From an uncultured Sphingobacterium sp. (GTDB taxonomy: Bacteria > Bacteroidota > Bacteroidia > SpSt-205), in NCBI GenBank assembly GCA_964489015.1, contig CAZAXD010000001.1, positions 168,532-232,531 on the forward strand: a DNA stretch of 64,000 bases, written 5' to 3'. Below are positions 12,833 through 60,846 of the stretch, one piece after another. The notes under the pieces are model-generated. The model had not been told where the DNA came from, did no database searches, and saw nothing but the letters and a program-made list of their open reading frames with translations. The position numbers and the translations under genes were made by a program. Within the stretch, counting starts at the first letter, position 1; each line of letters starts with the position of its first letter.

Positions 12833-13777
12833 GTGGTGCGTATAGATGAGTTACTTCGGGCGGCGCAAGCCACCGTTATTGGTCAGCGGGAAGCTTTGGA
12901 GTCTTTGTGGATAGCCCTGATTAGTGGGGGACATGTCCTACTCGAAGGGGTGCCGGGCGTGGCTAAGACCCTGATGGCCAGTACAGTGGCCCATTTGTCT
13001 GGGCTTAGCTTCCAACGGGTCCAGTTTACGCCGGATATGTTGCCTTCCGACCTGCTGGGGGGGCTCGTTTATGAGGGACCAGGGCAATTTTCGGTGCGGA
13101 AGGGGCCTATCTTTACTCAGGTGCTCCTGGCGGATGAGGTAAACCGAGCTCCCGCCAAAGTGCAGAGCGCTCTCCTAGAGAGCATGCAGGAGGGGCAGGT
13201 CACCATCGGAGACACAACCTACCTCCTGCCTAAGCCCTTTTGGGTGTTGGCGACCCAAAATCCGATTGAGCAAGAAGGCACCTACGCGCTACCAGAAGCT
13301 CAGATAGATCGGTTTTTATTTCGGGTGATAGTGGAGTACCCTTCGCAAGCGGAGGAACAAGAGATTCTGCATCGGTGGGCATGGGCTTTGTATCCGCCTG
13401 TGCCGGCACCTATTCTGTCTCCCGAAGCGGTTTTACAGTTACAGGCAGCCCTTCAAGAAATAGAGGTATCTCCGGCCATGGAAGCTTACATGGTCCGGCT
13501 CGTGCGGGCCACGCGTGAGACCAATCAAGGCAAGCTACGGGATTGGAAGGGCTATGTGGCCTATGGCGCTTCACCACGGGCAGGACTCGCCTTACATCGG
13601 GCGGCGCGAGCGCGGGCGCTCCTCCACGGCCGCCATCAAGTCACCCCTGAGGACATCAAAGCCGTGGCCATGCCCGCCCTCAATCACCGTATCATCCTAG
13701 CCTACACGGCGCTAGCGGAGGGGCGAACGGCTCGAGCCTTTATAGAGGACCTCCTGCAAACGGTGCCGTATCAGTGA
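12833..13777 (+). CDS. MoxR-family AAA+ ATPase
   Basis: 314 aa. Walker A GVPGVAKT, Walker B LLADEVNRA and ..ATQNP.. motifs match MoxR. GTG start. Confidence 0.85.
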   Translation: MVRIDELLRAAQATVIGQREALESLWIALISGGHVLLEGVPGVAKTLMASTVAHLSGLSFQRVQFTPDMLPSDLLGGLVYEGPGQFSVRKGPIFTQVLLADEVNRAPAKVQSALLESMQEGQVTIGDTTYLLPKPFWVLATQNPIEQEGTYALPEAQIDRFLFRVIVEYPSQAEEQEILHRWAWALYPPVPAPILSPEAVLQLQAALQEIEVSPAMEAYMVRLVRATRETNQGKLRDWKGYVAYGASPRAGLALHRAARARALLHGRHQVTPEDIKAVAMPALNHRIILAYTALAEGRTARAFIEDLLQTVPYQ

Positions 13778-15006
13778 AGCTAGCTCCCGTCGACTTTTGG
13801 CTCTTTGCTCTTCCTCTCCTTCTGATGGGTATCGGTCTATTCAATCTATACTCGATAGAAAACGCACCCGCCGTATGGAATTGGGGGAATGCTTTTTATA
13901 AGCAACTAGTCTGGGCTTTTTTGGCGGCTTTGGGCATGTTACTTTTTAGCTTTTTAGAGGGAAATCTGTGGCGCTACATGGCGCCTCTGGCTTACATAGG
14001 AGGTGTAGGACTCATGACGTTGACCGTTTTTATCGGGCGGGAAGTAAATGGGGCCAAAGCTTGGTTGGAGCTAGGGGGCTTACGGCTACAGCCTTCGGAG
14101 TTTATGAAGGTGCTAGCGGCGCTTATGCTAGCCCGTGTCGCCAGTCCACCGGATTTTAAGTGGTCGCGGGGGCGGGATAGGCTGAGTGTCTTGGCGATAG
14201 TCGGTCTGCCGGCGTTACTGGCCCTTTTACAGCGGGATACAGGCACGGCGCTGACCTATGGGGCGCTAGTGATACCCCTCTATCGAATCGGGTTGTCGGG
14301 CTGGTTTATTGTGCTACCTCTGGTTGCTGGCCTCATGGCCTTGGGCAGCTTGAAGTACCCCTGGCCAGTATGGGCGGGGGTAGGGCTTGTCGTCGGCTTA
14401 CTATGGCATCTCTTCTGGCGCAAGGGGTGGTGGCCAGTGCTTCTTATCACGCTTGCGGCTGGGCTCTGGGCCTGGGCTGTGCCTAAGCTCTATCAGCACG
14501 TGCTAGCTCCCCATCAGCGCCAGCGTATAGAGGTCCTGTTTGATCCTTATCGTGATCCGCGTGGTGCCGGGTGGAATGTCATTCAGGCGCGCATCGCCAT
14601 AGAAGCAGGCGGCTTATGGGGACGCGGTTATGGTCAAGGCCTACAAAGTAAACTCGATTTCATTCCCCAGCGTCATACAGACTTCGCTTTCTGCAGTTTG
14701 GCTGAGGAGTGGGGATGGGCCGGTAGTACAGCGTACATCTTACTGTACATGGGCTTTCTGTGGTACTTATTGTGGATTTCTGAGCGAACGGGTAATCGCT
14801 TTGCCCTAGTATATGGTTATAGTCTAGCAGGCTTTCTGGGCTTACATTTAGTCATCAATGTAGGCATGATTCTGGGGCTCTTGCCTGTCATTGGGATTCC
14901 TCTGACATTTTTAAGCTACGGCGGCTCGTCGTGGGTGGCGATGGCGGCGGGCATAGGAATCCTTCAGCGGTGGTACCGTGAACGCACGCTTCGGTTATTT
15001 AGCTAG
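13774..15006 (+). CDS. SEDS-family peptidoglycan glycosyltransferase (FtsW/RodA-like)
   Basis: 410 aa, ~10 TM. Conserved SEDS motifs (..QRHTDFAFCSLAEEWGWAG.. and ..GIPLTFLSYGGSS..). GTG start overlaps the MoxR stop (GTGA). Confidence 0.8.
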   Translation: MKLAPVDFWLFALPLLLMGIGLFNLYSIENAPAVWNWGNAFYKQLVWAFLAALGMLLFSFLEGNLWRYMAPLAYIGGVGLMTLTVFIGREVNGAKAWLELGGLRLQPSEFMKVLAALMLARVASPPDFKWSRGRDRLSVLAIVGLPALLALLQRDTGTALTYGALVIPLYRIGLSGWFIVLPLVAGLMALGSLKYPWPVWAGVGLVVGLLWHLFWRKGWWPVLLITLAAGLWAWAVPKLYQHVLAPHQRQRIEVLFDPYRDPRGAGWNVIQARIAIEAGGLWGRGYGQGLQSKLDFIPQRHTDFAFCSLAEEWGWAGSTAYILLYMGFLWYLLWISERTGNRFALVYGYSLAGFLGLHLVINVGMILGLLPVIGIPLTFLSYGGSSWVAMAAGIGILQRWYRERTLRLFS

Positions 15007-49879: not shown

Positions 49880-50741
49880 TATTGGGCTGTGGGGGTGTGG
49901 TGGAGACGGTAATGCTGAGGGCCCCATGCGGGGTCGTGCCGTAGTAGTTGTAGACCCCACCCTCAGGCCAGCTATCGAGCTCGTAGCTGAAGCCTTTGAG
50001 CGGTCATATCCGCAGGCCCGCCTTGAGCTGCGCTATCAGGAGGAGGCCCGAGCGGTGGCGGCTCTTTTGGCGGACAGCGTAGCGGCGGCTATCGTGACGC
50101 GTCCGTTTTCCGTGGAAGAGAGTACCGCCCTGGCGGAGCAGCGGATTCGCCCTAAACAAGTTTTGGTGGCCTGGGATGGTCTGGCCCTGGTAGCGCATCC
50201 GAGTCGCTCTGACAGCCTACTCAAGCTAGATAGCTTACGCGCCTGGCTTCAACGTCCTCGCCCCCCGTATCGGTTTGTGGTCGAAGGCGGGTCGGGGTCA
50301 GGCATTTACCGATATATTCGGGACTCGCTCTGTGGGGGTCAAGCGCTGCTAGCGCCCCTTTATCGTGCGGATAGTGTGGGCGGGGTCTTCGCTTACGTGC
50401 AGCAGGAGATTCGGGCGCTTGGATGGATCGGGGCGGCGTGGGTCTGCGATCGCGAAGACTCCACAGCTCAGCGTTTTACGCGGACCGTGCGCGTGTATGC
50501 GATTGCACCGTCAGGGGCGTCAGATTATTACTTTCCCTATGCAGGCTGGCTAAGGCCGGGGTATTATCCCCTGGTGCGTACAGTTTATGCTCTTAATCGG
50601 GAGCCTCGGCAGGGTGTGGCGACTAGCTTCATTGCTTATTTGGCAGGTCCTGAGGGGCAGCGTATCCTACTCAAGTCGGGGTTATTTCCAGCTAGAGCGC
50701 CTACGCGTATTATCGAGCTCAAAGAGCAAACAATACCCTAA
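49833..50741 (+). CDS. PBP-like (PstS/PhoT family) substrate-binding lipoprotein
   Basis: Putative lipobox LLVSIGLWGC. Periplasmic-binding-protein type 2 fold motifs (..VVVVDPTLRPAIELV.., ..EGGSGSGIYRYI..). Start chosen downstream of the secDF overlap. Confidence 0.5.
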   Translation: MLCKVVRSVSRFLLVSIGLWGCGGDGNAEGPMRGRAVVVVDPTLRPAIELVAEAFERSYPQARLELRYQEEARAVAALLADSVAAAIVTRPFSVEESTALAEQRIRPKQVLVAWDGLALVAHPSRSDSLLKLDSLRAWLQRPRPPYRFVVEGGSGSGIYRYIRDSLCGGQALLAPLYRADSVGGVFAYVQQEIRALGWIGAAWVCDREDSTAQRFTRTVRVYAIAPSGASDYYFPYAGWLRPGYYPLVRTVYALNREPRQGVATSFIAYLAGPEGQRILLKSGLFPARAPTRIIELKEQTIP

Positions 50742-52240
50742 TCTTCGTCCTCGTCCTCGTCCTCATCGGAGCTAGGTCGCAGCATATCTCCCAAAATGTC
50801 CTTGAAAGAAAGCTCCCGCTCAGAGAGGGTACGACCGATTAGGGACAAGTCGGCAAGGCCATGCAGAATAAGCTCCATCCAGGTATAAGGGGAGCCTGGT
50901 AAGCCGGCGGATTCTACAAGCGTTTGGAGGTGGGGTATGCGGCGCAGTTCACGGTGAAAGTCCGCATCTGGCGCCCATCGCGACAGAGTCAAGGTATTGC
51001 CGCTCCCAAACCAGTCGATGATAGGTTGGTACGGATTAGGTTGGGTGCTCCGGCGAAACTTCTCAGGCGAGGGGAAATAGGTTAGAAACTCTTCCCGCAT
51101 GGCGCGATGACATAAATACAACGCCACGGGCTGAATACCTTCCTTTTCTCCTTCGTATACCAGCTCGACTTTACCAATAATGGCTGGGATCGTGCCGTAC
51201 AAGTCTAGAAAACGTATGGTGGTATGCGGTTCGTTATTGAGTAGGCAGCGCTGCTCTGCGGCTGCCACGACACACTCGTAAGCCGAAATGGCTAGCCGCG
51301 CAGAGACGCCGCTTTTCTGATCGATGTACTCGCTTTCTCGGGCTAACATCCCGATGCGTTCAATGGCGTTTGCGATGGGATCAGGCACATGAATCCGGCT
51401 TTTCTGCTCTGCTAAGAGGCGGGCTTCCTGCTGGGTGATTTTACGGCTGGCTTGAAGGGAGCGCGGGTAGTGCGTCAGGATCTGGCTACCAATGCGGTCT
51501 TTGAGGGGTGTGATGATGGTACCCCGCTGGGTATAATCCTCTGGATTGGCCGTAAATACAAACTGAATGTCTAGTGGCAAGCGAAAGGCATAGCCCCGAA
51601 CTTGAATATCCTTTTCCTGCAGGATATTGAAAAGCGCGACTTGGATTCGGGGCTGTAGGTCCGGCAGTTCGTTGATGACAAAGATTCCCCGATGAGCACG
51701 GGGGATAAGCCCATAGTGAATGACGCGCGGGTCACTGTAGGGCAGCTTAAGGGTGGCGGCGCGAATCGGGTCAATATCCCCAATCAGGTCGGCTACGGAG
51801 ACGTCAGGCGTGGCTAGCTTTTCGACGTAGCGGGCCTCGCGGGGGATCCATCGGATAGGCGTATCATCCCCGGCTTCGGCCAAGATCATTTTTCCCTGGC
51901 TCGTAATCGGGTTAAAGGGGTCTTCTGGCAATTCCGTCCCCTCTATGGCCGGGATGTAGGGGTCGAGCAGTTCGACTAAGAGGCGGGACAGGCGGGTTTT
52001 GGCTTGCCCCCGCAGCCCCAGTAGTAAGATATCATGCCTAGCTAAGATAGCGCTGCGTAACTGGGGCAGCACGGTTTCCTCGTAGTCGTAGATGCCTTGA
52101 AAGAGCGGCTTGCCTTGTCGCAGGGCTGCGATGAGATTCTCTCGAAGCTCCACTTTGACAGGGCGGGAGCGATAGCCCGCTGTTTTTAGCTGCCCAAGGG
52201 TTCGTAAAGCGGTTAGTTTGTGCATGACGTGCGGAAACAA
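50738..52240 (-). CDS. ChlI/BchI-like (magnesium-chelatase family) AAA+ ATPase with acidic poly-ED C-terminal tail
   Basis: 500 aa. N-terminal ..ILLLGLRGQAKTRLSRLL.. is Walker A-like in ChlI family context, with a sensor/arginine finger region. Ends ..SSDEDEDEDED. Confidence 0.6.
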   Translation of the reverse strand: MFPHVMHKLTALRTLGQLKTAGYRSRPVKVELRENLIAALRQGKPLFQGIYDYEETVLPQLRSAILARHDILLLGLRGQAKTRLSRLLVELLDPYIPAIEGTELPEDPFNPITSQGKMILAEAGDDTPIRWIPREARYVEKLATPDVSVADLIGDIDPIRAATLKLPYSDPRVIHYGLIPRAHRGIFVINELPDLQPRIQVALFNILQEKDIQVRGYAFRLPLDIQFVFTANPEDYTQRGTIITPLKDRIGSQILTHYPRSLQASRKITQQEARLLAEQKSRIHVPDPIANAIERIGMLARESEYIDQKSGVSARLAISAYECVVAAAEQRCLLNNEPHTTIRFLDLYGTIPAIIGKVELVYEGEKEGIQPVALYLCHRAMREEFLTYFPSPEKFRRSTQPNPYQPIIDWFGSGNTLTLSRWAPDADFHRELRRIPHLQTLVESAGLPGSPYTWMELILHGLADLSLIGRTLSERELSFKDILGDMLRPSSDEDEDEDED

Positions 52241-53927: not shown

Positions 53928-54896
53928 ATGGCAAAGATAAGCCCTTCCTATAAAAACCGTTTCTTTGGACTTATGCGGTGGCCTGCCCCTCTCGAGGCTG
54001 GCAGTCGAGTAGCCTTAGTCGCACCCGCTCGGCGCGTACAGCCGGCCGATTTGCAGCCTTTCATGGAGTTTGTGCGACGGCAGGGGTGGTCTCTCGTTTT
54101 TCAGCCCGAGGCTCTCTATGCGCAGGATGGTTTTTTTGCAGGGTCAGATAAGCATCGGCTTGATAGGCTACAGGCAGCCTTGGATGACCCGGATCTCGGA
54201 GCGATCTGGTTAGCCAGGGGAGGACACGGTCTTAGTCGCCTGTGGCCGAAGCTCCGCTGGGATCGCTTTGTGAGCCATCCAAAATGGATTATTGGCTTTA
54301 GTGATGGGACGCCGCTTTTGTGGGCGGCTGCCCGACAGGGCGTCGTTGCGCTTCACGCGCCCGTCGCGGCGTATATCCCGCATCGAACGGCACCCGAGGC
54401 ACTTAATCGCCTTCTACGTCTGCTGCGTGGAGAGCCTCTTCCACCCATCCTGTGGAGGCGTCAGCCCTGGTACGCCTGGCAGATCGGGCAAGCGCAGGGT
54501 CGCCTCTGGGGCGGAAACCTGTCCCTGCTTGCCACCCTAGCTGGCACGCCGCTGGACTTTAGCCATGACAAAAACGCCGCATTACTCTTTTTCGAGGAAG
54601 TGGGCGAATACGCCTATCGCCTTGATCGCCTTTTGTGGCACCTCCATAATACTGGCTGGTTTGATCAGGCGGCAGCCGTGCTGGTGGGCACGCTCTCCGC
54701 CCTCCTCGATGATCAAGACCTGCCTTTCAGCCGTACTCCCAAGGAGATGATCCTCGATGTCTTGCAAGCCTGTCCTAAGCCTTTCGCCATGGGCCTTCCC
54801 AGCGGACACGTCGCAGAAAACTATCCTCTGCCCATAGGTGCTACTGCTGATTTCGTCGTTGAAGCCAGGCAAGCTATTTTGACGATTCAGCGGTAA
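53928..54896 (+). CDS. ldcA: LD-carboxypeptidase (peptidase S66)
   Basis: 322 aa with S66 motif ..IIGFSDGTPLL.. and a C-terminal His/Glu region. Confidence 0.75.
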   Translation: MAKISPSYKNRFFGLMRWPAPLEAGSRVALVAPARRVQPADLQPFMEFVRRQGWSLVFQPEALYAQDGFFAGSDKHRLDRLQAALDDPDLGAIWLARGGHGLSRLWPKLRWDRFVSHPKWIIGFSDGTPLLWAAARQGVVALHAPVAAYIPHRTAPEALNRLLRLLRGEPLPPILWRRQPWYAWQIGQAQGRLWGGNLSLLATLAGTPLDFSHDKNAALLFFEEVGEYAYRLDRLLWHLHNTGWFDQAAAVLVGTLSALLDDQDLPFSRTPKEMILDVLQACPKPFAMGLPSGHVAENYPLPIGATADFVVEARQAILTIQR

Positions 54897-55947
54897 GGGG
54901 CTTGGTCGTTGGCGGACGAGCGCCCGCCTTCGTGTCCGCAGGTGTGCGGGACGACGGGCTTGAGCTAGTCTCAGAAGAAGGCGAGTTAGGGTCTGGTGCA
55001 GTTTGGGGCCCTACCTGACTAGTAGTACTGCTATCAGGCTTGGCCTTAGAGAGGGAGTCACCGGGCTGGGTGGTGTCAGGCACGGAAGGAGGTGTGGATC
55101 GGCGAGGAAGGAGATGCCAGGCACCTACCCCTATTAACGTAAGCAGGCCTAACCCAATCAACGTGCCCGCCAGCGCCTTAGCTACTTGCCTTCTAGTAGC
55201 CACGCCTTGGGAAGCGGGGCTGACGAGCATGACAGTGATATTATCATAGCCGCCAGCATCGAGTGCAGCACGGACGAGATGACGAACCTTTTCACTGAGC
55301 GAAGTCTTTTTCGTGAGGATGTGGGCGATGCGCTCCTCGGAGATATAACCCGTCAGCCCATCAGAGCACAGGAGAAATACATCGTCTGGCCGCACTGGCA
55401 GTGGGAACGTAGTAGCCTCTACGAGCATGAGGTCCCGAGAGGCGCCGATAGCCAAAAGAAGTTGATTGCTTTCAGAATGGCCGAAGCTTTGCTCAGGCGC
55501 TAAATGCCCTGTTTCAATGTACCACCATACGAGACTGTGATCGCGAGTCAAGCGAGAGAGGCGACCCTGACGCCAGAGATAGAGACGGCTGTCCCCGATA
55601 TGGGCCCACCAAGCCTCGTTTTGGGGGGTGAGCAGTAATAAGACGAGCGTGGTGCCCATGTGAGTCGTGCCGAGGCCCATTTGTGGGGCCTTAAGAACAT
55701 GGTAATGGGCGTTTTGAATAGCACGTCGTAACCAGTAGTCAGGGCTATATGACGTGGGCGTCGCTTTTTGTAAGGTTTGCTGAACGGCTTCGATCGCAAG
55801 GCTTGCTGCTATATCGCCCGCGCCATGTCCGCCCATGCCATCGCAGACCACATAAACCGACCCCAAAGGGCATTCTAAGTGAGTGTAGCGATCTTCATTG
55901 ACCTGGCGATGATAGCCCAGGTGTGACTCGCTGGCAAAGCTAGCCAT
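54874..55947 (-). CDS. PP2C-family Ser/Thr protein phosphatase with C-terminal TM helix and S/T/P-rich tail
   Basis: PP2C motifs ..VVCDGMGGHGAGDIAS.., ..LLCSDGL.. and ..DNITVMLV... TM LIGLGLLTLIGVGAW, then a low-complexity Ser/Thr/Pro tail. Confidence 0.85.
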   Translation of the reverse strand: MASFASESHLGYHRQVNEDRYTHLECPLGSVYVVCDGMGGHGAGDIAASLAIEAVQQTLQKATPTSYSPDYWLRRAIQNAHYHVLKAPQMGLGTTHMGTTLVLLLLTPQNEAWWAHIGDSRLYLWRQGRLSRLTRDHSLVWWYIETGHLAPEQSFGHSESNQLLLAIGASRDLMLVEATTFPLPVRPDDVFLLCSDGLTGYISEERIAHILTKKTSLSEKVRHLVRAALDAGGYDNITVMLVSPASQGVATRRQVAKALAGTLIGLGLLTLIGVGAWHLLPRRSTPPSVPDTTQPGDSLSKAKPDSSTTSQVGPQTAPDPNSPSSETSSSPSSRTPADTKAGARPPTTKPLTAESSK

Positions 55948-55949
55948 GA

Positions 55950-57116
55950 TTAGCCGGCTATTTGAATCACGATGGCGCCCAGTCGGAGCTGGTCACCGAT
56001 TTGAATGGGGTGTTGCGTGATGCGATTATTATTGACGAAGGTGCCATTGGTGCTCCCCAGGTCTTGTATGTACCACCAGCTACCCTGTAAGAATAAGCGG
56101 GCGTGCCGACTCGATACAGTGGGGTCGTTGATGACGATCGTATTGTCAGGAGCACGACCTAGGGTAATCGGCGCAGTCGAAGGGGGTAACTGCACGTCTT
56201 GATGGCCATGGGGATAGTAAACGATGAGTCGGCGAATCACCGGGGATGGTGGCTGGACCGGGGCAGGGGCTGGCGCCGGTGGCGGTACTGCCGGTGCCTG
56301 AGGCTGCTTATTCCCTGAGGTCAAGGCAATAATCACCCCTACTACAACCAGCGTTCCCGCTCCAATCAAGATCCAGTGCCAGAGCGCTGACCCACCTTTG
56401 AGGGTAGCCTTCTCTATGAGGGGTGACTGTTCTCCACCCAGGCTAGTTCCGGGCATACCAGCGCTGGGCTCAGCAGGCGGCGAAGGCACGCCGGGGCTTC
56501 CTATGGCGTTCTGCAAAAACTGAGCGATGCCCTCTGCCAGGTCACCGCTGTTTGGCTTGACGAGGGCGTACTGCTGGGACGATCCGCCTTCAAATTGGCC
56601 AGATAACCGCTTGAGTAGAGTTTGGGCGGCTTGATTCTCGGAGCCCCAGCCGATGGATAGCGCGTAAATGGTAGTCTGGCGGGCATCGGCGAGACGCACA
56701 ATGTCATCATAGCGAAGGCCCGGGCTATTATCCGAGCCAGAAGCTAAGAGGATGAGCTTAGGAGCGCGTACAAATTCTCCTCGCAGCGCTTCTTCTAGGG
56801 CCCCTAAAAGCTCTACCGCGTAAATCGAGTCGCAACGTGGACGAAGATTCTGTAAAACCTGATTGCAGGTATAGCCCTCCGCTTCCAAAATGGGAGTGGT
56901 GAGCCAGTCGATATAACGACCGTTGTGCTTGCGGTAAAAGGTGCCTATCGCCACACGCCCCGCCGGCTTACCGCATAGGACCTGCTTTAGCGCACTGCGC
57001 GCCGACAGGATAGGCGCGCCGCAGGTTAGCTGAGAAGCTTCAACTAAGATGATGTAATCGGCCGAGGGCTGTGCAAAAGCGAGAAAAATACTCAAGGCTA
57101 GGGCGACTTGCTTCAT
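55950..57116 (-). CDS. membrane protein: signal peptide, vWA-like domain (degenerate MIDAS), TM helix, Pro-rich linker, C-terminal FHA domain
   Basis: Signal peptide MKQVALALSIFLAFAQ. vWA-like strands YIILVEAS.., ..LILLASGSDNS.. and ..TTIYALSIGWGS... TM ALWHWILIGAGTLVVVGVIIALT. Linker PPPAPAPAPVQPP. FHA motif ..ITLGRAPDNTIVINDPTVSSRHARL.......IQDLGSTNGTFVN. Confidence 0.8.
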   Translation of the reverse strand: MKQVALALSIFLAFAQPSADYIILVEASQLTCGAPILSARSALKQVLCGKPAGRVAIGTFYRKHNGRYIDWLTTPILEAEGYTCNQVLQNLRPRCDSIYAVELLGALEEALRGEFVRAPKLILLASGSDNSPGLRYDDIVRLADARQTTIYALSIGWGSENQAAQTLLKRLSGQFEGGSSQQYALVKPNSGDLAEGIAQFLQNAIGSPGVPSPPAEPSAGMPGTSLGGEQSPLIEKATLKGGSALWHWILIGAGTLVVVGVIIALTSGNKQPQAPAVPPPAPAPAPVQPPSPVIRRLIVYYPHGHQDVQLPPSTAPITLGRAPDNTIVINDPTVSSRHARLFLQGSWWYIQDLGSTNGTFVNNNRITQHPIQIGDQLRLGAIVIQIAG

Positions 57117-57136
57117 ATCCTTACAAAGGTAAAGGT

Positions 57137-57688
57137 CTATACGCTCCGAAAGCGAAGCTCTGTATTGCCTATTTTGAGCATATCCCCATCTTGCAAGACG
57201 CCTTCGTCGACGAGCTCACCATTGAGGAGCGTGCCGTTGGTGGAGAATTCATCCTTGAAGCGGACGGTATTGGTCCCAGGTCGAGCTAAGATCGTTAGGT
57301 GATGACCGGAAGCGCCGGGGTCTTGTAAAACGATGTCGCAGTGGGGGGCGGAGCCGATGGTGTTTTTGCCCTCATATAAGCGAAAGTCTACTCCATTAGG
57401 GTGCAAGGTAAAGCTCACGAGCCAACCGATCAATTTACGGTTGGAGGGCGCGCTCCGTTGGGTAGGGCTTATGCCGGGGCCCTGGTAGACTTGCGTTTTG
57501 CCCGGATCAAAAGGGGTGGCTTGACCTGGCGTGCCTCCTAAAATTTGTGTTTTTTTAGGGTCGAAGCTGGGGCTAGGCATGGCCGGCGGAATCGGGGCCG
57601 GAGCCGGGGGCTGGTCTGGGCCCATGACCTGTGTGCGCTTGAATTCATCTCCTTGGTGCAGCTGAGTATTCTCAAAAGGTGAGTTCAT
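57137..57688 (-). CDS. FHA domain-containing protein with N-terminal Pro-rich, TQ-repeat region
   Basis: 183 aa. C-terminal FHA motif (..NTIGSAPHCDIVLQDPGASGHHLTI.......FKDEFSTNGTLLNG..). N-terminus has three K-x-TQ-h-h-G repeats. Confidence 0.8.
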   Translation of the reverse strand: MNSPFENTQLHQGDEFKRTQVMGPDQPPAPAPIPPAMPSPSFDPKKTQILGGTPGQATPFDPGKTQVYQGPGISPTQRSAPSNRKLIGWLVSFTLHPNGVDFRLYEGKNTIGSAPHCDIVLQDPGASGHHLTILARPGTNTVRFKDEFSTNGTLLNGELVDEGVLQDGDMLKIGNTELRFRSV

Positions 57689-57727
57689 AAGGCAAAAATA
57701 AGGTTTTTAAGTAGTCTGGGGTCTCTA

Positions 57728-57735
57728 TACTTTTG
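57728..57735 (+). promoter_or_regulatory. putative -7 box TACTTTTG (TAnnTTTG) for the CzcA-like RND gene
   Basis: Motif TACTTTTG ends 6 nt before the ATG at 57742. Lies in the 44-nt divergent intergenic region shared with the FHA operon. Confidence 0.3.
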
Positions 57736-57741
57736 CGGCAT

Positions 57742-60700
57742 ATGTGGTCGGCCCTCTTACGGCTTAGTGTGCGCTCGACGCTTTTTACGCTGGGTGTGGT
57801 GCTAGTGGTCATGGGGCTCGGTCTGTATGGCGTTTTGCATATCGCCGTGGATGCCATTCCCGACATCACAAACAATCAGGTTCAGGTTTATGCGTACGGA
57901 CCGGGGTATTCGGCTGCTGAGATGGAGTTGCTTGTCACGCGTCCCTTAGAGCAGGCTCTGGCTACCGTTCCTAAACGGATAGAGTGGCGCTCCATTTCTC
58001 GAGCGGGTCTTTCCCTCGTTACAGTCGTATTTTCGGAGGAGGAAGACCCTGTTCGGGCTCGTAGCGCTGTGTATGAGCGCATCGGCGCTGTCACCTTGCC
58101 CGCCGGTGTGCAAGCGGAGATGGGTCCTTTGAGCACAGGCCTTAGTGAGGCCTATCAGTACTACCTCAAGCCGCAAATGCCAGTAAGCCTCCAGGAACTG
58201 CGGCTGATCCAGGATTGGGTGATTCGTCGGGAGCTACTAAATGTGCCGGGCGTAGCCGATATCAGCAGCTTTGGTGGGAGCGTACGCCGCTGGGAGGTGC
58301 TTATCGACCCTGCTGCGCTGCTGCGCTGGAACCTGAGCTTACAAGAGATAGAAGTCGCCCTTCAGAGATCCAATCAGCTCTTAGGGGGCGGCTATATTGA
58401 AAAGCAAGGGCAAACCGTTGCCTTCCGCATAGATGGATTGTGGCGAAATCCGGAGGAGATCGCAAGAACCGTCATTGGTGTGTATCAGGGGCGTCCTTTG
58501 CTATTACGAGATGTCGCTCGCATCCAGGAGGGAGCACTGCCCCGTTATGGCGCCTTGGTCAAGGACACCCTTGGAGAAATCGTGGGGGGCATCGTACTTC
58601 TGCGGCGCGGCGAAAATACCGCTCGCGTGGTGGCAGACCTCAAGGCCCACATTGCCGCCTTAGCGCCTAGACTACCTTATGGTATCCAAATCGTGTCTTT
58701 TCTAGATCGGGAGGCGCTCATCCATCGCTTGATTCGTACCGTTACGCAAAATCTGGTCGAGGCTGCCCTCATTGTCATAGGACTATTGACGTTTTTGCTG
58801 GCCAGCTGGCGGGCTGGGCTCTTAGCGGGGCTCGTCATACCCCTCTCTATGCTCTTTGCACTGGGCCTGATGCAACTGTCAGGCGTATCGGCTAATCTCA
58901 TGAGCTTGGGTGCGATAGATTTTGGCCTTATCGTCGACGGTACGGTCATCCTCATAGAAGCCGTTTTAGTTCGTCTGCGGTCTGAGCCGCAGCCCCTGCT
59001 TGCCGCCGAAGAGGCTAGCATCCAGATCCGCCAAGCTAGTCTCTTCGGAGAGCTCGTAGTCCTCTCAGTCTATTTACCGCTACTTTTTCTGCGAGGCGTC
59101 GAAGGGAAGCTCTTTCGGCCGATGGTGCTGACGATGATTTATGCGCTTGTCGGGGCTTTGGTGCTTTCGCTGACGCTAATACCCTGGCTTTCGGCCCGCT
59201 TCTTACGGCCCATTGCCCGTCATGGGCTGGCAGAACGTTTTTTTGATCGATTGGGCGTGCAATTCTGGAATCTTTACCGCTGGAGCGTGCGTCATCCGGT
59301 GATTCCGATACTGGTCTGGGTACTATGGGTGGTAGGCGGAGGTCTTCTCCTTCTAGGGCGGGAGAAAGTTTTTATGCCCGAGCTAGATGAAGGCGATTTC
59401 GCAGTAGAGACGCGTTTGCCCTTAGGGCGGGCTTTATCTGAAACCATCTCTTATACGCAAAAGCTAGCGAAAACTCTCCTTACTGAGATGCCCTGGGCCT
59501 TTTCGAGTGTGGTAGCTAAAATCGGTACTTCGGAGATCCCGATGGACCCCATGTTTGTGGAATCAGCCGACCTAATCGTGCATATTCGGCCCGAGGCGCC
59601 GCTCCCTAGAGTCCAGTTAGCTGATTCACTCAAGGCTGTGCTCGCCAGGCAGTACCCCGGCATTTTTTTCGGCGTACAGCAGCCCATCCAAATGCGGTTT
59701 AATGAGCTTTTAGCCGGGGCGCGCATGGATATCGTGGTCAAGCTCCTAGGACCCGATTTAGATACCCTTCTCAAGTATGGGGAAAAGTTAGCCGATTTGT
59801 GTGCAAACGTTCCTGGCGTCTCTGACCTAAGCCGTCCGCTCTTTTTTGGGGCTCAGACGATCGAGGTACGATGGAAACCGGAGCTTGTCTTGTTTTACGA
59901 GGTGGATTTGGTAGAGGCGCAAAAGCGCTTACAGGCTTTTAGGGCCGGTATACCCGTTTCCTGGCTGTATGAGGGGGAAAGGCGTATACCCGTTGCCCTT
60001 CGGCTCGAGGTTGAGCCTAGCTTAGCGACCTTAGAGGCGTTACCTATTCCGACTCGACGAGGCGGATATGTGACGCTCTCCAGCATTGCAGAGGTGAGGC
60101 TGCGCCCTGCTTACAATGAGATTCCTCATGCAGATGGGCAGCGGGCTTACGTCATTGGCATCAACGTTCGGGGGCGCGGGGTGTTCAGTGTCGTGACAGA
60201 AATTCAGCGACAAGCGAAGGCCCTGGCTTTGCCGCCAGGCTATTACCTGCGTTACGGCGGACAATGGCAAAACTACTTAGAGGCCCGCGAACGTCTCTTC
60301 TGGATAGCTCCCCTAACGGTCGCTCTCGTGGCTCTGCTCATGTACCTTACGTTAGCACGCTGGTGGGCCGTCGGACTGATTCTGCTGCTTTCGCTGAGTG
60401 CACCGGCGGGAGGCCTGCTAGCGCTGGCTGTACGGGACATGCCTTTTAGCTTATCGGCGGCCATAGGCCTGATTAGCGTTTTGGGTTTAGCTACCTTGCA
60501 AGGGACTGTACTCCTCAATCGACTACACGCTCTCATCAAGCAGGGGCATAAACCCCTTTACGCTTGGAAGGCAGCTATTCAGGAGCGAATCCGCCCCATC
60601 TGGGCCACGACCCTTGTCGCTTCAGCCGGGTTTCTGCCCATGGCCTTTTCTACCCAAGCCGGCGCAGAAGTTCAACGGCCCCTAGCTACCGTGGTGCTCG

Positions 60701-60846
60701 GCGGGCTGCTGATTAGTGCCTTTTTTACGTTATGGGTGTTGCCTCTAGTCTATAACCCGAAGCACCTCGTTGAGCCAGCTAAAAATTATAACCCAGGAAC
60801 AGGCCGACCTCCGTTAGATCGGTCCGAATCGGAGCCGAGTAGTTGA
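57742..60846 (+). CDS. CzcA/CusA-family heavy-metal efflux RND transporter permease
   Basis: ATG 57742 gives MWSALLRLSVRSTLFTLGVVLVVMGLGLYGV.., a CzcA-type N-terminus. The track start 57733 is a TTG extension. About 1035 aa, 12 TM. Confidence 0.85.
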   Translation: MWSALLRLSVRSTLFTLGVVLVVMGLGLYGVLHIAVDAIPDITNNQVQVYAYGPGYSAAEMELLVTRPLEQALATVPKRIEWRSISRAGLSLVTVVFSEEEDPVRARSAVYERIGAVTLPAGVQAEMGPLSTGLSEAYQYYLKPQMPVSLQELRLIQDWVIRRELLNVPGVADISSFGGSVRRWEVLIDPAALLRWNLSLQEIEVALQRSNQLLGGGYIEKQGQTVAFRIDGLWRNPEEIARTVIGVYQGRPLLLRDVARIQEGALPRYGALVKDTLGEIVGGIVLLRRGENTARVVADLKAHIAALAPRLPYGIQIVSFLDREALIHRLIRTVTQNLVEAALIVIGLLTFLLASWRAGLLAGLVIPLSMLFALGLMQLSGVSANLMSLGAIDFGLIVDGTVILIEAVLVRLRSEPQPLLAAEEASIQIRQASLFGELVVLSVYLPLLFLRGVEGKLFRPMVLTMIYALVGALVLSLTLIPWLSARFLRPIARHGLAERFFDRLGVQFWNLYRWSVRHPVIPILVWVLWVVGGGLLLLGREKVFMPELDEGDFAVETRLPLGRALSETISYTQKLAKTLLTEMPWAFSSVVAKIGTSEIPMDPMFVESADLIVHIRPEAPLPRVQLADSLKAVLARQYPGIFFGVQQPIQMRFNELLAGARMDIVVKLLGPDLDTLLKYGEKLADLCANVPGVSDLSRPLFFGAQTIEVRWKPELVLFYEVDLVEAQKRLQAFRAGIPVSWLYEGERRIPVALRLEVEPSLATLEALPIPTRRGGYVTLSSIAEVRLRPAYNEIPHADGQRAYVIGINVRGRGVFSVVTEIQRQAKALALPPGYYLRYGGQWQNYLEARERLFWIAPLTVALVALLMYLTLARWWAVGLILLLSLSAPAGGLLALAVRDMPFSLSAAIGLISVLGLATLQGTVLLNRLHALIKQGHKPLYAWKAAIQERIRPIWATTLVASAGFLPMAFSTQAGAEVQRPLATVVLGGLLISAFFTLWVLPLVYNPKHLVEPAKNYNPGTGRPPLDRSESEPSS

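Follow-up and report, generated by a model that had tools for sequence, protein, structure and literature searches.

Three adjacent genes in a 64,000 nucleotide stretch of DNA from an uncultured Sphingobacterium sp. of the Bacteroidia (the window) encode a small FHA protein, a protein with a signal peptide, a vWA domain, a transmembrane helix (TM) and a second FHA domain, and a PP2C phosphatase with a TM and a tail. Two potential readers of phosphothreonine (pThr) beside a potential eraser raise the question of which kinase they serve, if any. [quoted passage not shown] Our analysis favours the second, with a presumed kinase elsewhere in the genome.

The three genes are conserved as a unit

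The features of the locus are given in Table 1. Reading of the open reading frames and profile searches bore out the described layout, with three minus-strand genes separated by gaps of 20 and 2 nt and flanked by genes for a Peptidase_S66 LD-carboxypeptidase and a CusA/CzcA-family RND pump. About 30 loci of a single Bacteroidia clade (19 from genomes and assemblies and 11 from metagenomes) show this trio in unchanged order, the genes being separated by tiny gaps or overlapping. Neighbouring genes differ between these family loci, and the trio, conserved as a unit, are the only genes common to all of them.

Table 1. Features of the three-gene locus (window positions; aa, amino acids of the encoded protein).
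Feature	Position	Strand	Description or basis
Putative Bacteroidota -7 promoter box	57693..57700	-	TATTTTTG, matches TAnnTTTG; 12 nt before gene 1 ATG
Gene 1, small cytoplasmic FHA protein, 183 aa	57137..57688	-	Disordered N-terminal half and C-terminal FHA
Gene 1 N-terminal disordered region, aa 5-70, T-Q repeats	57479..57676	-	Repeat counts and AlphaFold
Gene 1 FHA domain, aa 89-183, non-canonical pocket	57140..57424	-	Alignments
Gene 2, bitopic protein, 388 aa	55950..57116	-	Signal peptide, periplasmic vWA, P/S-rich linker, TM, Pro-rich linker, cytoplasmic FHA
Gene 2 vWA-like ectodomain, aa 20-205	56502..57059	-	Foldseek, VWA_3 in homologues, hhalign
Gene 2 TM, aa 246-267	56316..56381	-	Hydrophobic stretch WHWILIGAGTLVVVGVIIALTS, then basic residues (K/R)
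Gene 2 cytoplasmic FHA domain, aa 294-388	55953..56237	-	Pfam FHA E 7e-22
Gene 3, PP2C phosphatase, 357 aa	54874..55947	-	Pfam PP2C_2, PP2C, SpoIIE; Stp1/IreP model
Gene 3 cytoplasmic catalytic domain, aa 1-245	55213-55947	-	
Gene 3 TM, about aa 257-281	55105-55179	-	
Gene 3 extracytoplasmic tail	54877-55104	-	Variable, S/T/P-rich, low-complexity

Of 13 family loci, 11 have the motif of the putative -7 box at -12 or -13, the remaining upstream sequence being unconserved. If it acts as a promoter, its closeness to the start codon implies that the operon transcript would be nearly leaderless. As part of the best explanation developed below, we think it probable that the three genes form one operon for a reader, a second reader and an eraser on the membrane. 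In one lineage (L089) the PP2C gene is retained but both FHA genes have been lost, and in another locus (L090) the gene 2 copy is frameshifted, so the trio is dispensable in some backgrounds. Housekeeping genes, their synteny partly conserved, surround the locus, and the window ORFs scanned included no mobile-element genes.

Genes 2 and 3 encode a bitopic vWA-FHA protein and a phosphatase with intact catalytic residues

Profile searches and an ectodomain model confirmed all four domain assignments. The topology proposed for the gene 2 product also held: a signal peptide that on sequence reading is cleavable between AFA and QP precedes the ectodomain, and the TM, which AlphaFold models as a helix at 244–266, is followed by K/R residues. 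The window's own copy has no Pfam vWA match; six of seven close homologues match VWA_3 (best E 2.3e-5), and an AlphaFold model of the ectodomain (pLDDT ~80) was matched by Foldseek to vWA domains, integrin I-domains among them (best E 2e-7; TM-score, normalised to the target, of at most 0.72). A search of 1.84 billion representative proteins detected no sequence relatives of the ectodomain beyond its own small family. Four cysteines (32, 48, 84 and 95) are invariant in it and its MIDAS is degenerate, with E26-x-S28-x-L30 for DxSxS and A125-S126-G127 for T-D-G; hhalign against the CD11b I-domain aligned ASG with TDG at low probability.

The FHA domain of gene 2 has a canonical pThr pocket (G320-R321, S335..H338, N357-G358), all residues of which are invariant, and its best NCBIfam model is FhaB/FipA (89.8 bits, residues 270–385). 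The two FHA domains of genes 1 and 2 are the most conserved parts of the module, and mean pairwise identity across the clade is 0.75 for that of gene 2 against 0.46 for the vWA domain. Gene 3 matches Pfam PP2C_2 (E 1e-15) and the NCBIfam Stp1/IreP model (211.8 bits, E 9e-63), and no signal peptide was seen on sequence reading. Its motifs NED17, DGMGG36, GDSR118, SDG195 and GYDN233 are invariant across orthologues; the position of its TM is conserved whereas the tail is not. Selection has maintained the catalytic and binding sites: the PP2C motifs are invariant, and the gene 2 FHA domain is 75% identical across the clade and retains GR, SxxH and NG.

Gene 1 combines threonine repeats with an arginine-less FHA pocket

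Gene 1, which occupies the same position in all family loci, carries a clear FHA domain (Pfam FHA E 8e-16) behind a region, residues 1–80, that has no secondary structure in the AlphaFold model. The T-Q threonines T8, T19, T47 and T65 lie within aa 5–70 and T76 just downstream, T47 and T65 falling within conserved FDPx(K/R)TQ(V/I) units. Each gene 1 protein has two to six conserved (D-P-x-K/R-)T-Q repeats, and orthologues contain 2–6 [KR]T[QH] units where ~0.07 are expected; the observed count was reached in 0/2000 shuffles for 16 of 17 orthologues and in 3/2000 for the remaining one (L017). T65 is invariant in 18 sequences from the family and sister tiers. FHA ligands include the pattern pTxx(hydrophobic), and the hydrophobic residue (M/L/V/Y) at +3 of the repeats fits it. 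The T-Q threonines are candidate phospho-acceptor and FHA-docking sites; the AlphaFold model gave no sign of motif docking.

The pocket of the gene 1 FHA domain has G112-S113 where the canonical sequence is Gly-Arg, with SxxH and NG retained. At the Arg position, none of the 18 family and sister sequences has R; the residue is S, T, A or K. One 'reader' at least may therefore not read pThr. In GarA/OdhI and in the SCD-FHA arrangement of Rad53, a disordered N-terminal region of phospho-acceptor threonines (TQ clusters in Rad53) adjoins an FHA domain within the same small protein, as in gene 1. Gene 1 differs in having several repeats and an Arg-less pocket of its own, and its likely reader would be the FHA domain of gene 2.

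Sister clusters include Hanks kinases

As the sequence-only reading had stated, no Hanks kinase is encoded in the window, either by tblastn with a positive control or by Pfam searches of 49 larger ORFs that include all the long non-nested ones; nor was a kinase found in the ~450 kb of clade DNA examined. In more distant Bacteroidota, sister operons (L092/L093, L094/L095 and L096) keep true homologues of the three genes in this order, and receptor-type Hanks kinases come after them. The gene 2 homology between family and sisters is full-length (hhalign probability 99.3%, E 7.5e-21), and the nearest non-family PP2C gene (L091) has a PknB-like kinase gene directly after it. A kinase lies within 7 kb in six of seven sister loci having gene 2 and PP2C, against none of 18 informative family loci (Fisher p 4e-5, a value that is no evolutionary test because the contrast may stem from a single ancestral event).

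The sister clusters are assembled from a Zn-ribbon/KTx-repeat FHA protein, SP-vWA-TM-FHA, PP2C-TM-(LysM), Hanks kinase-TM-(SH3b), FHA-FHA-TM-trypsin and FHA-RDD proteins. They share with the window's clade the signal peptide/vWA/TM/FHA layout of gene 2 and the Arg-less pocket and invariant repeat Thr of gene 1. The window's clade lacks the adjacent kinase, FHA-trypsin and FHA-RDD genes; its gene 1 has no zinc ribbon and its PP2C no LysM. In one cluster (L092) two LysM domains are found on the PP2C and SH3_3 on the kinase, alongside an FHA-FHA-TM-trypsin protein; these partners provide a link to the envelope. No paper describing the sister cluster was found in the literature searched.

Since sister operons pair the same vWA-TM-FHA protein with a separate Hanks kinase, the earlier proposal that FHA had replaced a kinase domain does not hold. 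It is the neighbouring kinase gene that is missing from this clade's locus, rather than a domain that was swapped. On balance we regard the trio as a trimmed version, without a kinase gene, of a larger Bacteroidota cluster for envelope signalling that has not been described so far.

A reader/eraser unit and its alternatives

Our preferred reading, which we hold with some confidence, is that the trio is a membrane-associated pThr reader/eraser unit, reduced from the wider cluster and served by a kinase encoded elsewhere. A Hanks-type Ser/Thr kinase, probably with other substrates too, would phosphorylate threonines in the (FDPxK/R)TQ repeats of gene 1; gene 2 would then dock on these sites through its canonical FHA domain, at the inner membrane face. 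The periplasmic vWA domain may bind an envelope ligand, in which case periplasmic state and cytoplasmic pThr state would be coupled in one complex, and the membrane-anchored PP2C would strip the phosphates and reset the system. The physiological field is likely to be cell-envelope or peptidoglycan homeostasis. Several points sit less easily with this reading: no kinase turned up in ~450 kb of DNA from the clade, the FHA of gene 1 is Arg-less, genes of the trio are lost in L089 and frameshifted in L090, the MIDAS is degenerate, and the gene 1 model shows no motif docking.

Alternatively, the kinase may have been lost altogether. In that case the FHA domains would be phospho-independent scaffolds linking the vWA ectodomain with a partner in the cytoplasm, and the PP2C would act on other substrates or be disappearing. 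We consider this unlikely. It would account for the absence of a kinase from the ~30 family loci and the 64-kb window, the missing Arg of gene 1, the solitary PP2C of L089 and the frameshift in L090, and it matches the pattern of reduction, the clade having also lost the gene 1 zinc ribbon and the PP2C LysM ectodomain. However, the gene 2 pocket, the five PP2C metal/catalytic motifs and Thr65 are invariant while the vWA domain falls to ~45% identity, which is hard to explain without phospho-signalling. The Arg loss, moreover, is common to the kinase-containing sister clusters and is therefore older than the loss of the kinase.

It is very improbable that the trio is part of a biological-conflict or anti-phage system, of the kind in which effector-associated domains are combined with vWA, kinases and proteases. 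vWA-centred conflict systems and kinase, PP2C and vWA triads have been described (Kaur et al., 2020; PMC7159879), the L096 cluster includes a kinase fused to EAD11 and an FHA-FHA-trypsin protein, and the PP2C has a weak PADLOC match (PDC-M21C, 30.9 bits). That match is, however, at the level of generic PP2C similarity, and PADLOC is blank for both FHA proteins. The trio's vWA domain is a secreted one, not a cytoplasmic one, neither a MoxR nor an effector gene is linked to the triad, and the housekeeping neighbours, partly conserved synteny and lack of mobile-element genes among the scanned ORFs also speak against a conflict role.

A T6SS-type checkpoint gating a secretion machine encoded elsewhere is largely refuted and the likeness is superficial: PpkA-PppA-Fha1 of the Pseudomonas aeruginosa H1-T6SS also combines FHA and PP2C proteins with a signalling protein that crosses the membrane once and bears an extracytoplasmic vWA sensor domain (PMC3224232), but that domain is C-terminal on the kinase, giving kinase-in, TM, vWA-out, the reverse of signal peptide, vWA-out, TM, FHA-in in gene 2. 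The two vWA domains have no detectable sequence relationship, and the only sequence relatives of the ectodomain are in its own family. Both FHA proteins match the TagH model weakly, at 31 and 47 bits, far under its cut-off of 120.25. No T6SS genes occur in the window or in the variable flanks of family loci, and the sister clusters keep company with LysM, SH3b, trypsin and RDD proteins instead.

Comparison with known systems

A close parallel in gene order is the actinobacterial cell-wall/division operon fhaA-fhaB(fipA)-pstP-rodA-pbpA-pknA-pknB (PMC11898655; PMC6213207), the fhaA-fhaB-pstP order of which we also read directly in two loci (L025 and L067). Its FHA / TM-FHA / PP2C-TM order is that of the trio. 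FhaA, like gene 1, is soluble with a disordered region and a C-terminal FHA; FhaB, like gene 2, crosses the membrane once and has its C-terminal FHA in the cytoplasm; and PstP has a PP2C domain, a TM and an extracytoplasmic tail, gene 3 being of Stp1/PstP type. In contrast, no SEDS, PBP or kinase genes follow the trio, gene 2 has an additional signal peptide and periplasmic vWA domain, and gene 1 lacks the N-terminal globular domain of FhaA and has TQ repeats and a non-canonical pocket. Scores are under the equivalog cut-offs, and reciprocal similarity gives weak evidence for orthology of gene 1 to FhaA.

The Deinococcus radiodurans operon DRA0331-DRA0334 (bioRxiv 10.64898/2026.01.23.701218) and the actinobacterial kinase-PP2C-vWA triads (PMC7159879) likewise co-encode vWA, Ser/Thr kinase, FHA and PP2C, with FHA proteins as kinase-phosphatase adaptors. 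There the vWA domain is separate and the kinase is in the operon, whereas the trio has no kinase and joins vWA to FHA in one membrane-spanning protein. In Sulfolobus, ArnA (FHA) and ArnB (vWA) form a phosphorylation-dependent complex (PMC6509490), a pThr-dependent assembly of the same two domain types that is reset by a phosphatase; it differs in being archaeal and cytoplasmic, in comprising two separate proteins with a PP2A phosphatase, and in regulating the archaellum.

The triad is a conserved operon

The three minus-strand open reading frames proposed in the sequence-only reading were confirmed in coordinates and strand (see table). They encode a small FHA protein (gene 1), a bitopic protein ending in an FHA domain (gene 2) and a PP2C phosphatase (gene 3), and are separated by gaps of 20 and 2 nt. 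Allowing for genes truncated at contig ends, the three are adjacent and in the same order in 19 assembly loci and 11 metagenome loci; the flanks differ among these family loci, and only the triad genes are common to all. The triad is therefore conserved as a unit in related genomes, which leaves the three-gene module standing. A TAnnTTTG sequence matching the Bacteroidota -7 promoter box lies 12-13 nt upstream of the gene 1 start codon in 11/13 family loci, and its closeness to the ATG suggests that the operon mRNA is nearly leaderless. Mean identity is highest for the two FHA domains (75%), falling to 61% for the PP2C, 46% for the vWA domain and less than 20% for the linkers and tail.

Table. 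Triad features in the window and gene content of homologous clusters in more distant Bacteroidota (sister loci). SP, signal peptide; TM, transmembrane helix.
Feature	Position	Strand	Description
Gene 1, small FHA protein	57137-57688	minus	183 aa
Gene 2, vWA-TM-FHA protein	55950-57116	minus	388 aa
Gene 3, PP2C	54874-55947	minus	357 aa
Putative Bacteroidota -7 promoter box (TAnnTTTG)	57693-57700	minus	TATTTTTG; 12 nt 5' of the small FHA ATG
Sister loci L092/L093			small FHA; SP-vWA-TM-FHA (491 aa); PP2C-TM-LysM x2; Pkinase-TM-SH3_3; FHA-FHA-TM-trypsin
Sister loci L094/L095			small FHA; SP-ectodomain-TM-FHA (541 aa); PP2C-TM; three Pkinase genes interspersed with FHA-RDD
Sister locus L096			two Pkinase genes, FHA-RDD, FHA-FHA-trypsin, then small FHA, VWA+FHA protein, PP2C

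The ectodomain family of gene 2 is very narrow, with seven clusters at 90% identity among 5.8 billion proteins. Full-length relatives were found only in approximately 11 species-level metagenome-assembled genomes (MAGs) labelled Bacteroidia or Bacteroidota, and no exact match to the window's own gene 2 protein is on record. An exhaustive ectodomain profile search gave eight representatives at 50% identity among 1.84 billion proteins; it missed the sister homologues, which emerged later through the small FHA protein.

In the window the triad is flanked by genes for an LD-carboxypeptidase and a CusA/CzcA-family RND pump. The former (plus strand) overlaps the PP2C gene tail-to-tail by 23 nt (54874-54896). 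The pump gene (57733-60846, plus strand), which has no membrane-fusion or outer-membrane partner gene adjoining it, diverges from the triad across an intergenic gap of about 45 nt, an arrangement shared with at least eight other loci including L089, a MAG locus described below. A further gene (50738-52240, minus strand) encodes a 500-aa AAA+ protein with marginal matches to Mg-chelatase, sigma-54 and AAA_5 models and an acidic SSDEDEDEDED C-terminal tail; its synteny near the triad is confined to L003, L009 and L010. Elsewhere in the window (12833-15006, plus strand) lies an unusual pair, a MoxR-type AAA_3 ATPase gene and an FtsW/RodA/SpoVE-family gene whose start it overlaps by 4 nt.

Domain structure and active-site residues of the three proteins

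Pfam identified both of the proposed FHA domains and the PP2C domain; the proposed vWA domain was not recognised in the window's own copy and was recovered through homologues and a fold search. Gene 1 has a C-terminal FHA domain (E 8e-16) preceded by 80-90 low-complexity residues that lack secondary structure in the AlphaFold model, according to which the N-terminal half is predicted to be disordered; the model is of low confidence and uninformative on motif docking. This half of the protein carries (F)DPx(K/R)TQ(V/I) units, among them those of T47 and T65, at 2-6 per orthologue against approximately 0.07 expected by chance. The threonine of the last unit, T65, is invariant even among distant relatives, and the residues at +3 of the TQ sites are hydrophobic. 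FHA ligands are usually hydrophobic at this position, and PknB-type kinases have a preference for TQ motifs, although our searches returned no usable literature on this preference or on Bacteroidota Hanks kinases. The FHA domain of gene 1 departs from the canonical Gly-Arg/Ser-x-x-His/Asn-Gly pocket at the arginine position: the residue after G112 is S, T, A or K in place of the phosphate-contacting arginine of canonical domains.

Gene 2 encodes a cleavable signal peptide, an ectodomain with four invariant cysteines, a single TM helix with basic residues after it, a linker rich in proline and a C-terminal FHA domain (Pfam E 7e-22), a layout that indicates an N-out/C-in topology. Its FHA pocket is canonical, with G320-R321, S335, H338 and N357-G358 all invariant. 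The ectodomain of the window's protein had no vWA match by Pfam or NCBIfam, and a profile search of PDB sequences gave only noise (E > 0.3) and a weak match to integrin alpha-X; Pfam VWA_3, however, matches six of seven close homologues. When the AlphaFold model of the ectodomain (pLDDT approximately 80) was searched with Foldseek, all 50 matches listed were vWA or integrin I-domains or vWA-containing chains, the best E being 2e-7 and the highest target-normalised TM-score 0.72. The ectodomain is thus predicted to adopt an integrin-I-domain-like alpha/beta (vWA) fold. Its MIDAS appears degenerate from the alignments, the family consensus being E26-x-S28-x-(L/Y)30 against DxSxS, with A-S126-G aligned to T-D-G of the CD11b I-domain; this mapping is tentative because the hhalign alignment to CD11b is partial and of low probability.

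Gene 3 has a PP2C domain (Pfam E 1e-15) in which the motifs checked are all present and conserved. It lacks a signal peptide; a TM helix and then a tail of variable, low-complexity sequence come after the catalytic domain. Against the NCBIfam model for Stp1/IreP/PstP-type PP2C (NF033484) it scores 211.8 bits, just under the cut-off of 230, and the nearest PP2C gene outside the family (L091) is followed by a gene for a PknB-like kinase. Partner-switching signalling of the RsbU/SpoIIE type was rejected on these two grounds, the best model being Stp1/IreP and the closest outgroup PP2C having a PknB-like kinase as its partner.

Two related loci are incomplete. At L089 (6893-10846), in the MAG GCA_025054525.1, neither FHA gene is present, and a 281-aa PP2C-TM orthologue in which GDSP replaces GDSR directly adjoins the divergent CzcA-like gene. 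In GCA_017880035.1 a frameshift splits the vWA-TM-FHA gene on a 2.72-Mb contig (L090, 8834-10001), which may be an assembly error or reflect a second strain because an intact copy is found on another contig (L006) of the same assembly.

The triad lacks the kinase found in sister clusters

In agreement with the sequence-only reading, tblastn with Hanks kinase domains found none in the window (as a positive control, the same search detected kinases in 22/69 unrelated FHA loci). A Pfam scan of 49 larger window ORFs, including all long non-nested ones, found no kinase of any type; these are ordinary Bacteroidota housekeeping genes with T9SS-type cargo. None of approximately 30 family loci contains a Hanks kinase.

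Operons in other Bacteroidota are headed by distant homologues of the small FHA protein (see table). These homologues share its unusual FHA domain and KTx repeats, and have a zinc ribbon at the N-terminus in addition. Gene 2 is homologous to its L092 counterpart over the full length (hhalign probability 99.3%, E 7.5e-21), and precomputed Pfam annotation of the L096 protein gives VWA (weak) and FHA. The window's triad has the KTx-repeat small FHA protein, the Arg-less FHA pocket and the SP-vWA-TM-FHA protein of these clusters, but in its clade there is no adjacent receptor-type Hanks kinase, no zinc ribbon on gene 1 and no LysM on the PP2C. When metagenome loci that extend 5 kb or more downstream are compared, a Hanks kinase lies within 7 kb in 6/7 sister loci with gene 2 and PP2C and in 0/18 family loci (Fisher p 4e-5, although the family loci are relatives and the contrast could stem from a single ancestral loss). 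Together with the kinase beside the nearest outgroup PP2C, the homology and the kinase contrast indicate that the triad derives from a larger Bacteroidota cluster and is a reduced form of it that has no kinase.

A shorter sister variant (L153, L164, L165, L108, L128, L170, L173, L174) has the order small FHA, PP2C, Hanks kinase; no vWA-TM-FHA gene was detected in these loci. Within a limited literature search we found no description of the Bacteroidota cluster as a whole, of a secreted vWA-TM-FHA fusion or of a TQ-repeat small FHA protein.

The gene order parallels fhaA-fhaB-pstP

In order, the triad matches the opening three genes of the fhaA-fhaB-pstP-rodA-pbpA-pknA-pknB operon, which encode a soluble FHA protein, a TM-FHA protein and a PP2C-TM protein (PMC11898655). 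We observed this order, followed by SEDS, PBP and PknB-like genes, in L025 (Nanopelagicales) and L067 (Clostridia). The SEDS (RodA), bPBP and PknA/PknB genes that continue the actinobacterial operon do not follow the triad in the window or in any family locus. The best NCBIfam model for gene 2 is that of mycobacterial FhaB/FipA (NF049868; 89.8 bits over residues 270-385, under the cut-off of 125), and its FHA domain prefers the FhaB-position protein (73.6 versus 56.6 bits). These similarities support gene 2 being FhaB-like, with an extra vWA ectodomain. For gene 1 as an FhaA orthologue the evidence is only positional. Gene 1 is missing the N-terminal globular domain of FhaA, and the reciprocal-similarity test, whose loci were chosen by means of the FHA domain of gene 2, is not strong enough to establish this orthology.

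Operons combining vWA, kinase, FHA and PP2C genes are known in Deinococcus (bioRxiv 10.64898/2026.01.23.701218) and Actinobacteria (PMC7159879), and FHA-vWA cooperation is known from ArnA/ArnB of Sulfolobus (PMC6509490). In each of these the vWA domain is a separate protein, whereas in the window it is fused through a TM helix to FHA.

A candidate membrane phosphothreonine reader/eraser unit

Considering the domains, topology, operon unity, intact catalytic and phosphothreonine (pThr)-binding residues, and the kinase-linked homologous clusters with peptidoglycan-binding ectodomains, we infer with moderate confidence that the triad is a membrane pThr reader/eraser unit served by a kinase encoded elsewhere and acting in the field of the envelope or peptidoglycan. 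The LysM, SH3b and periplasmic trypsin-like domains of sister clusters, and the FhaA/FhaB/PstP parallel, suggest this field. Such a kinase would phosphorylate the TQ repeats of gene 1, on which the canonical FHA domain of gene 2 would dock while its periplasmic vWA domain binds an envelope ligand, and the PP2C would reset the state.

In the main rival explanation, phospho-signalling at this locus has been lost from the clade, leaving proteins that now function independently of pThr. In keeping with it are the absence of a kinase, the FHA domain of gene 1 without the arginine, the loss of both FHA genes from L089 with retention of the PP2C, and the frameshift in L090. However, every residue needed for reading or erasing pThr is invariant, and the Arg-less pocket is older than the loss of the kinase; we consider this explanation improbable.

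A broader reading, which we regard as speculative and rather doubtful, is that the wider cluster is an unrecognised kind of trans-envelope signalling hub in which cytoplasmic pThr-FHA contacts assemble single-pass proteins, each bearing its own periplasmic module (vWA, LysM, SH3b, trypsin-like protease or RDD). On this reading the clade of the window would serve as a "kinase-less" natural experiment, with the hub running on a non-dedicated or non-Hanks kinase or having become a phospho-independent, vWA-anchored scaffold.

The analogy with the T6SS checkpoint PpkA-PppA-Fha1 drawn in the sequence-only reading fails on topology, sequence, the TagH model and gene context, and a T6SS role is unlikely. 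The likeness to PpkA goes no further than "vWA outside, signalling domain inside" (PMC3224232): the PpkA pathway has a Hanks kinase with a periplasmic vWA domain whereas the window has no kinase, a vWA domain fused to FHA and the opposite topology. The two FHA proteins score 31.0 and 47.1 bits against the TagH/Fha1-type model TIGR03354 (cut-off 120.25), and Pfam gave no T6SS structural genes in the window or in the precomputed annotation of the family flanks. An anti-phage defence system is likewise unlikely and was rejected with PADLOC, which had no match for either FHA protein and only a generic 30.9-bit match of the PP2C to PDC-M21C.

Ser/Thr phospho-signalling has been studied in depth in Actinobacteria, Firmicutes and a few Proteobacteria, and is little explored in Bacteroidota. 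What emerges here is a conserved set of Bacteroidota genes whose FHA domains, PP2C and receptor kinases are each joined by a single membrane helix to a different periplasmic domain, an extension of the known FHA/PP2C/STPK logic. Candidate sites that it singles out are the TQ repeats, of which T65 is invariant, R321 in the FHA domain of gene 2 and the apparently degenerate MIDAS. Persistence of the reader/eraser core as an operon without a kinase gene bears on how such units are wired to distant kinases. Practical impact is limited for now, as the clade is uncultured and known only from MAGs.

Further FHA fusions occur in the sister clusters (L092 15744-17027; L094 6967-9834 and 15265-16269; L096 412-7392), namely an FHA-FHA-TM-trypsin-like protease and an FHA-RDD membrane protein; the same spans hold a triple-FHA ABC transporter and a kinase fused to the effector-associated domain EAD11. 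Outside the family, the closest relative of the gene 2 FHA domain is that of tail-anchored proteins of Verrucomicrobiota (L020-L039, for example L020 9796-10299), which are approximately 165 aa long with an N-terminal FHA domain and a C-terminal TM helix.
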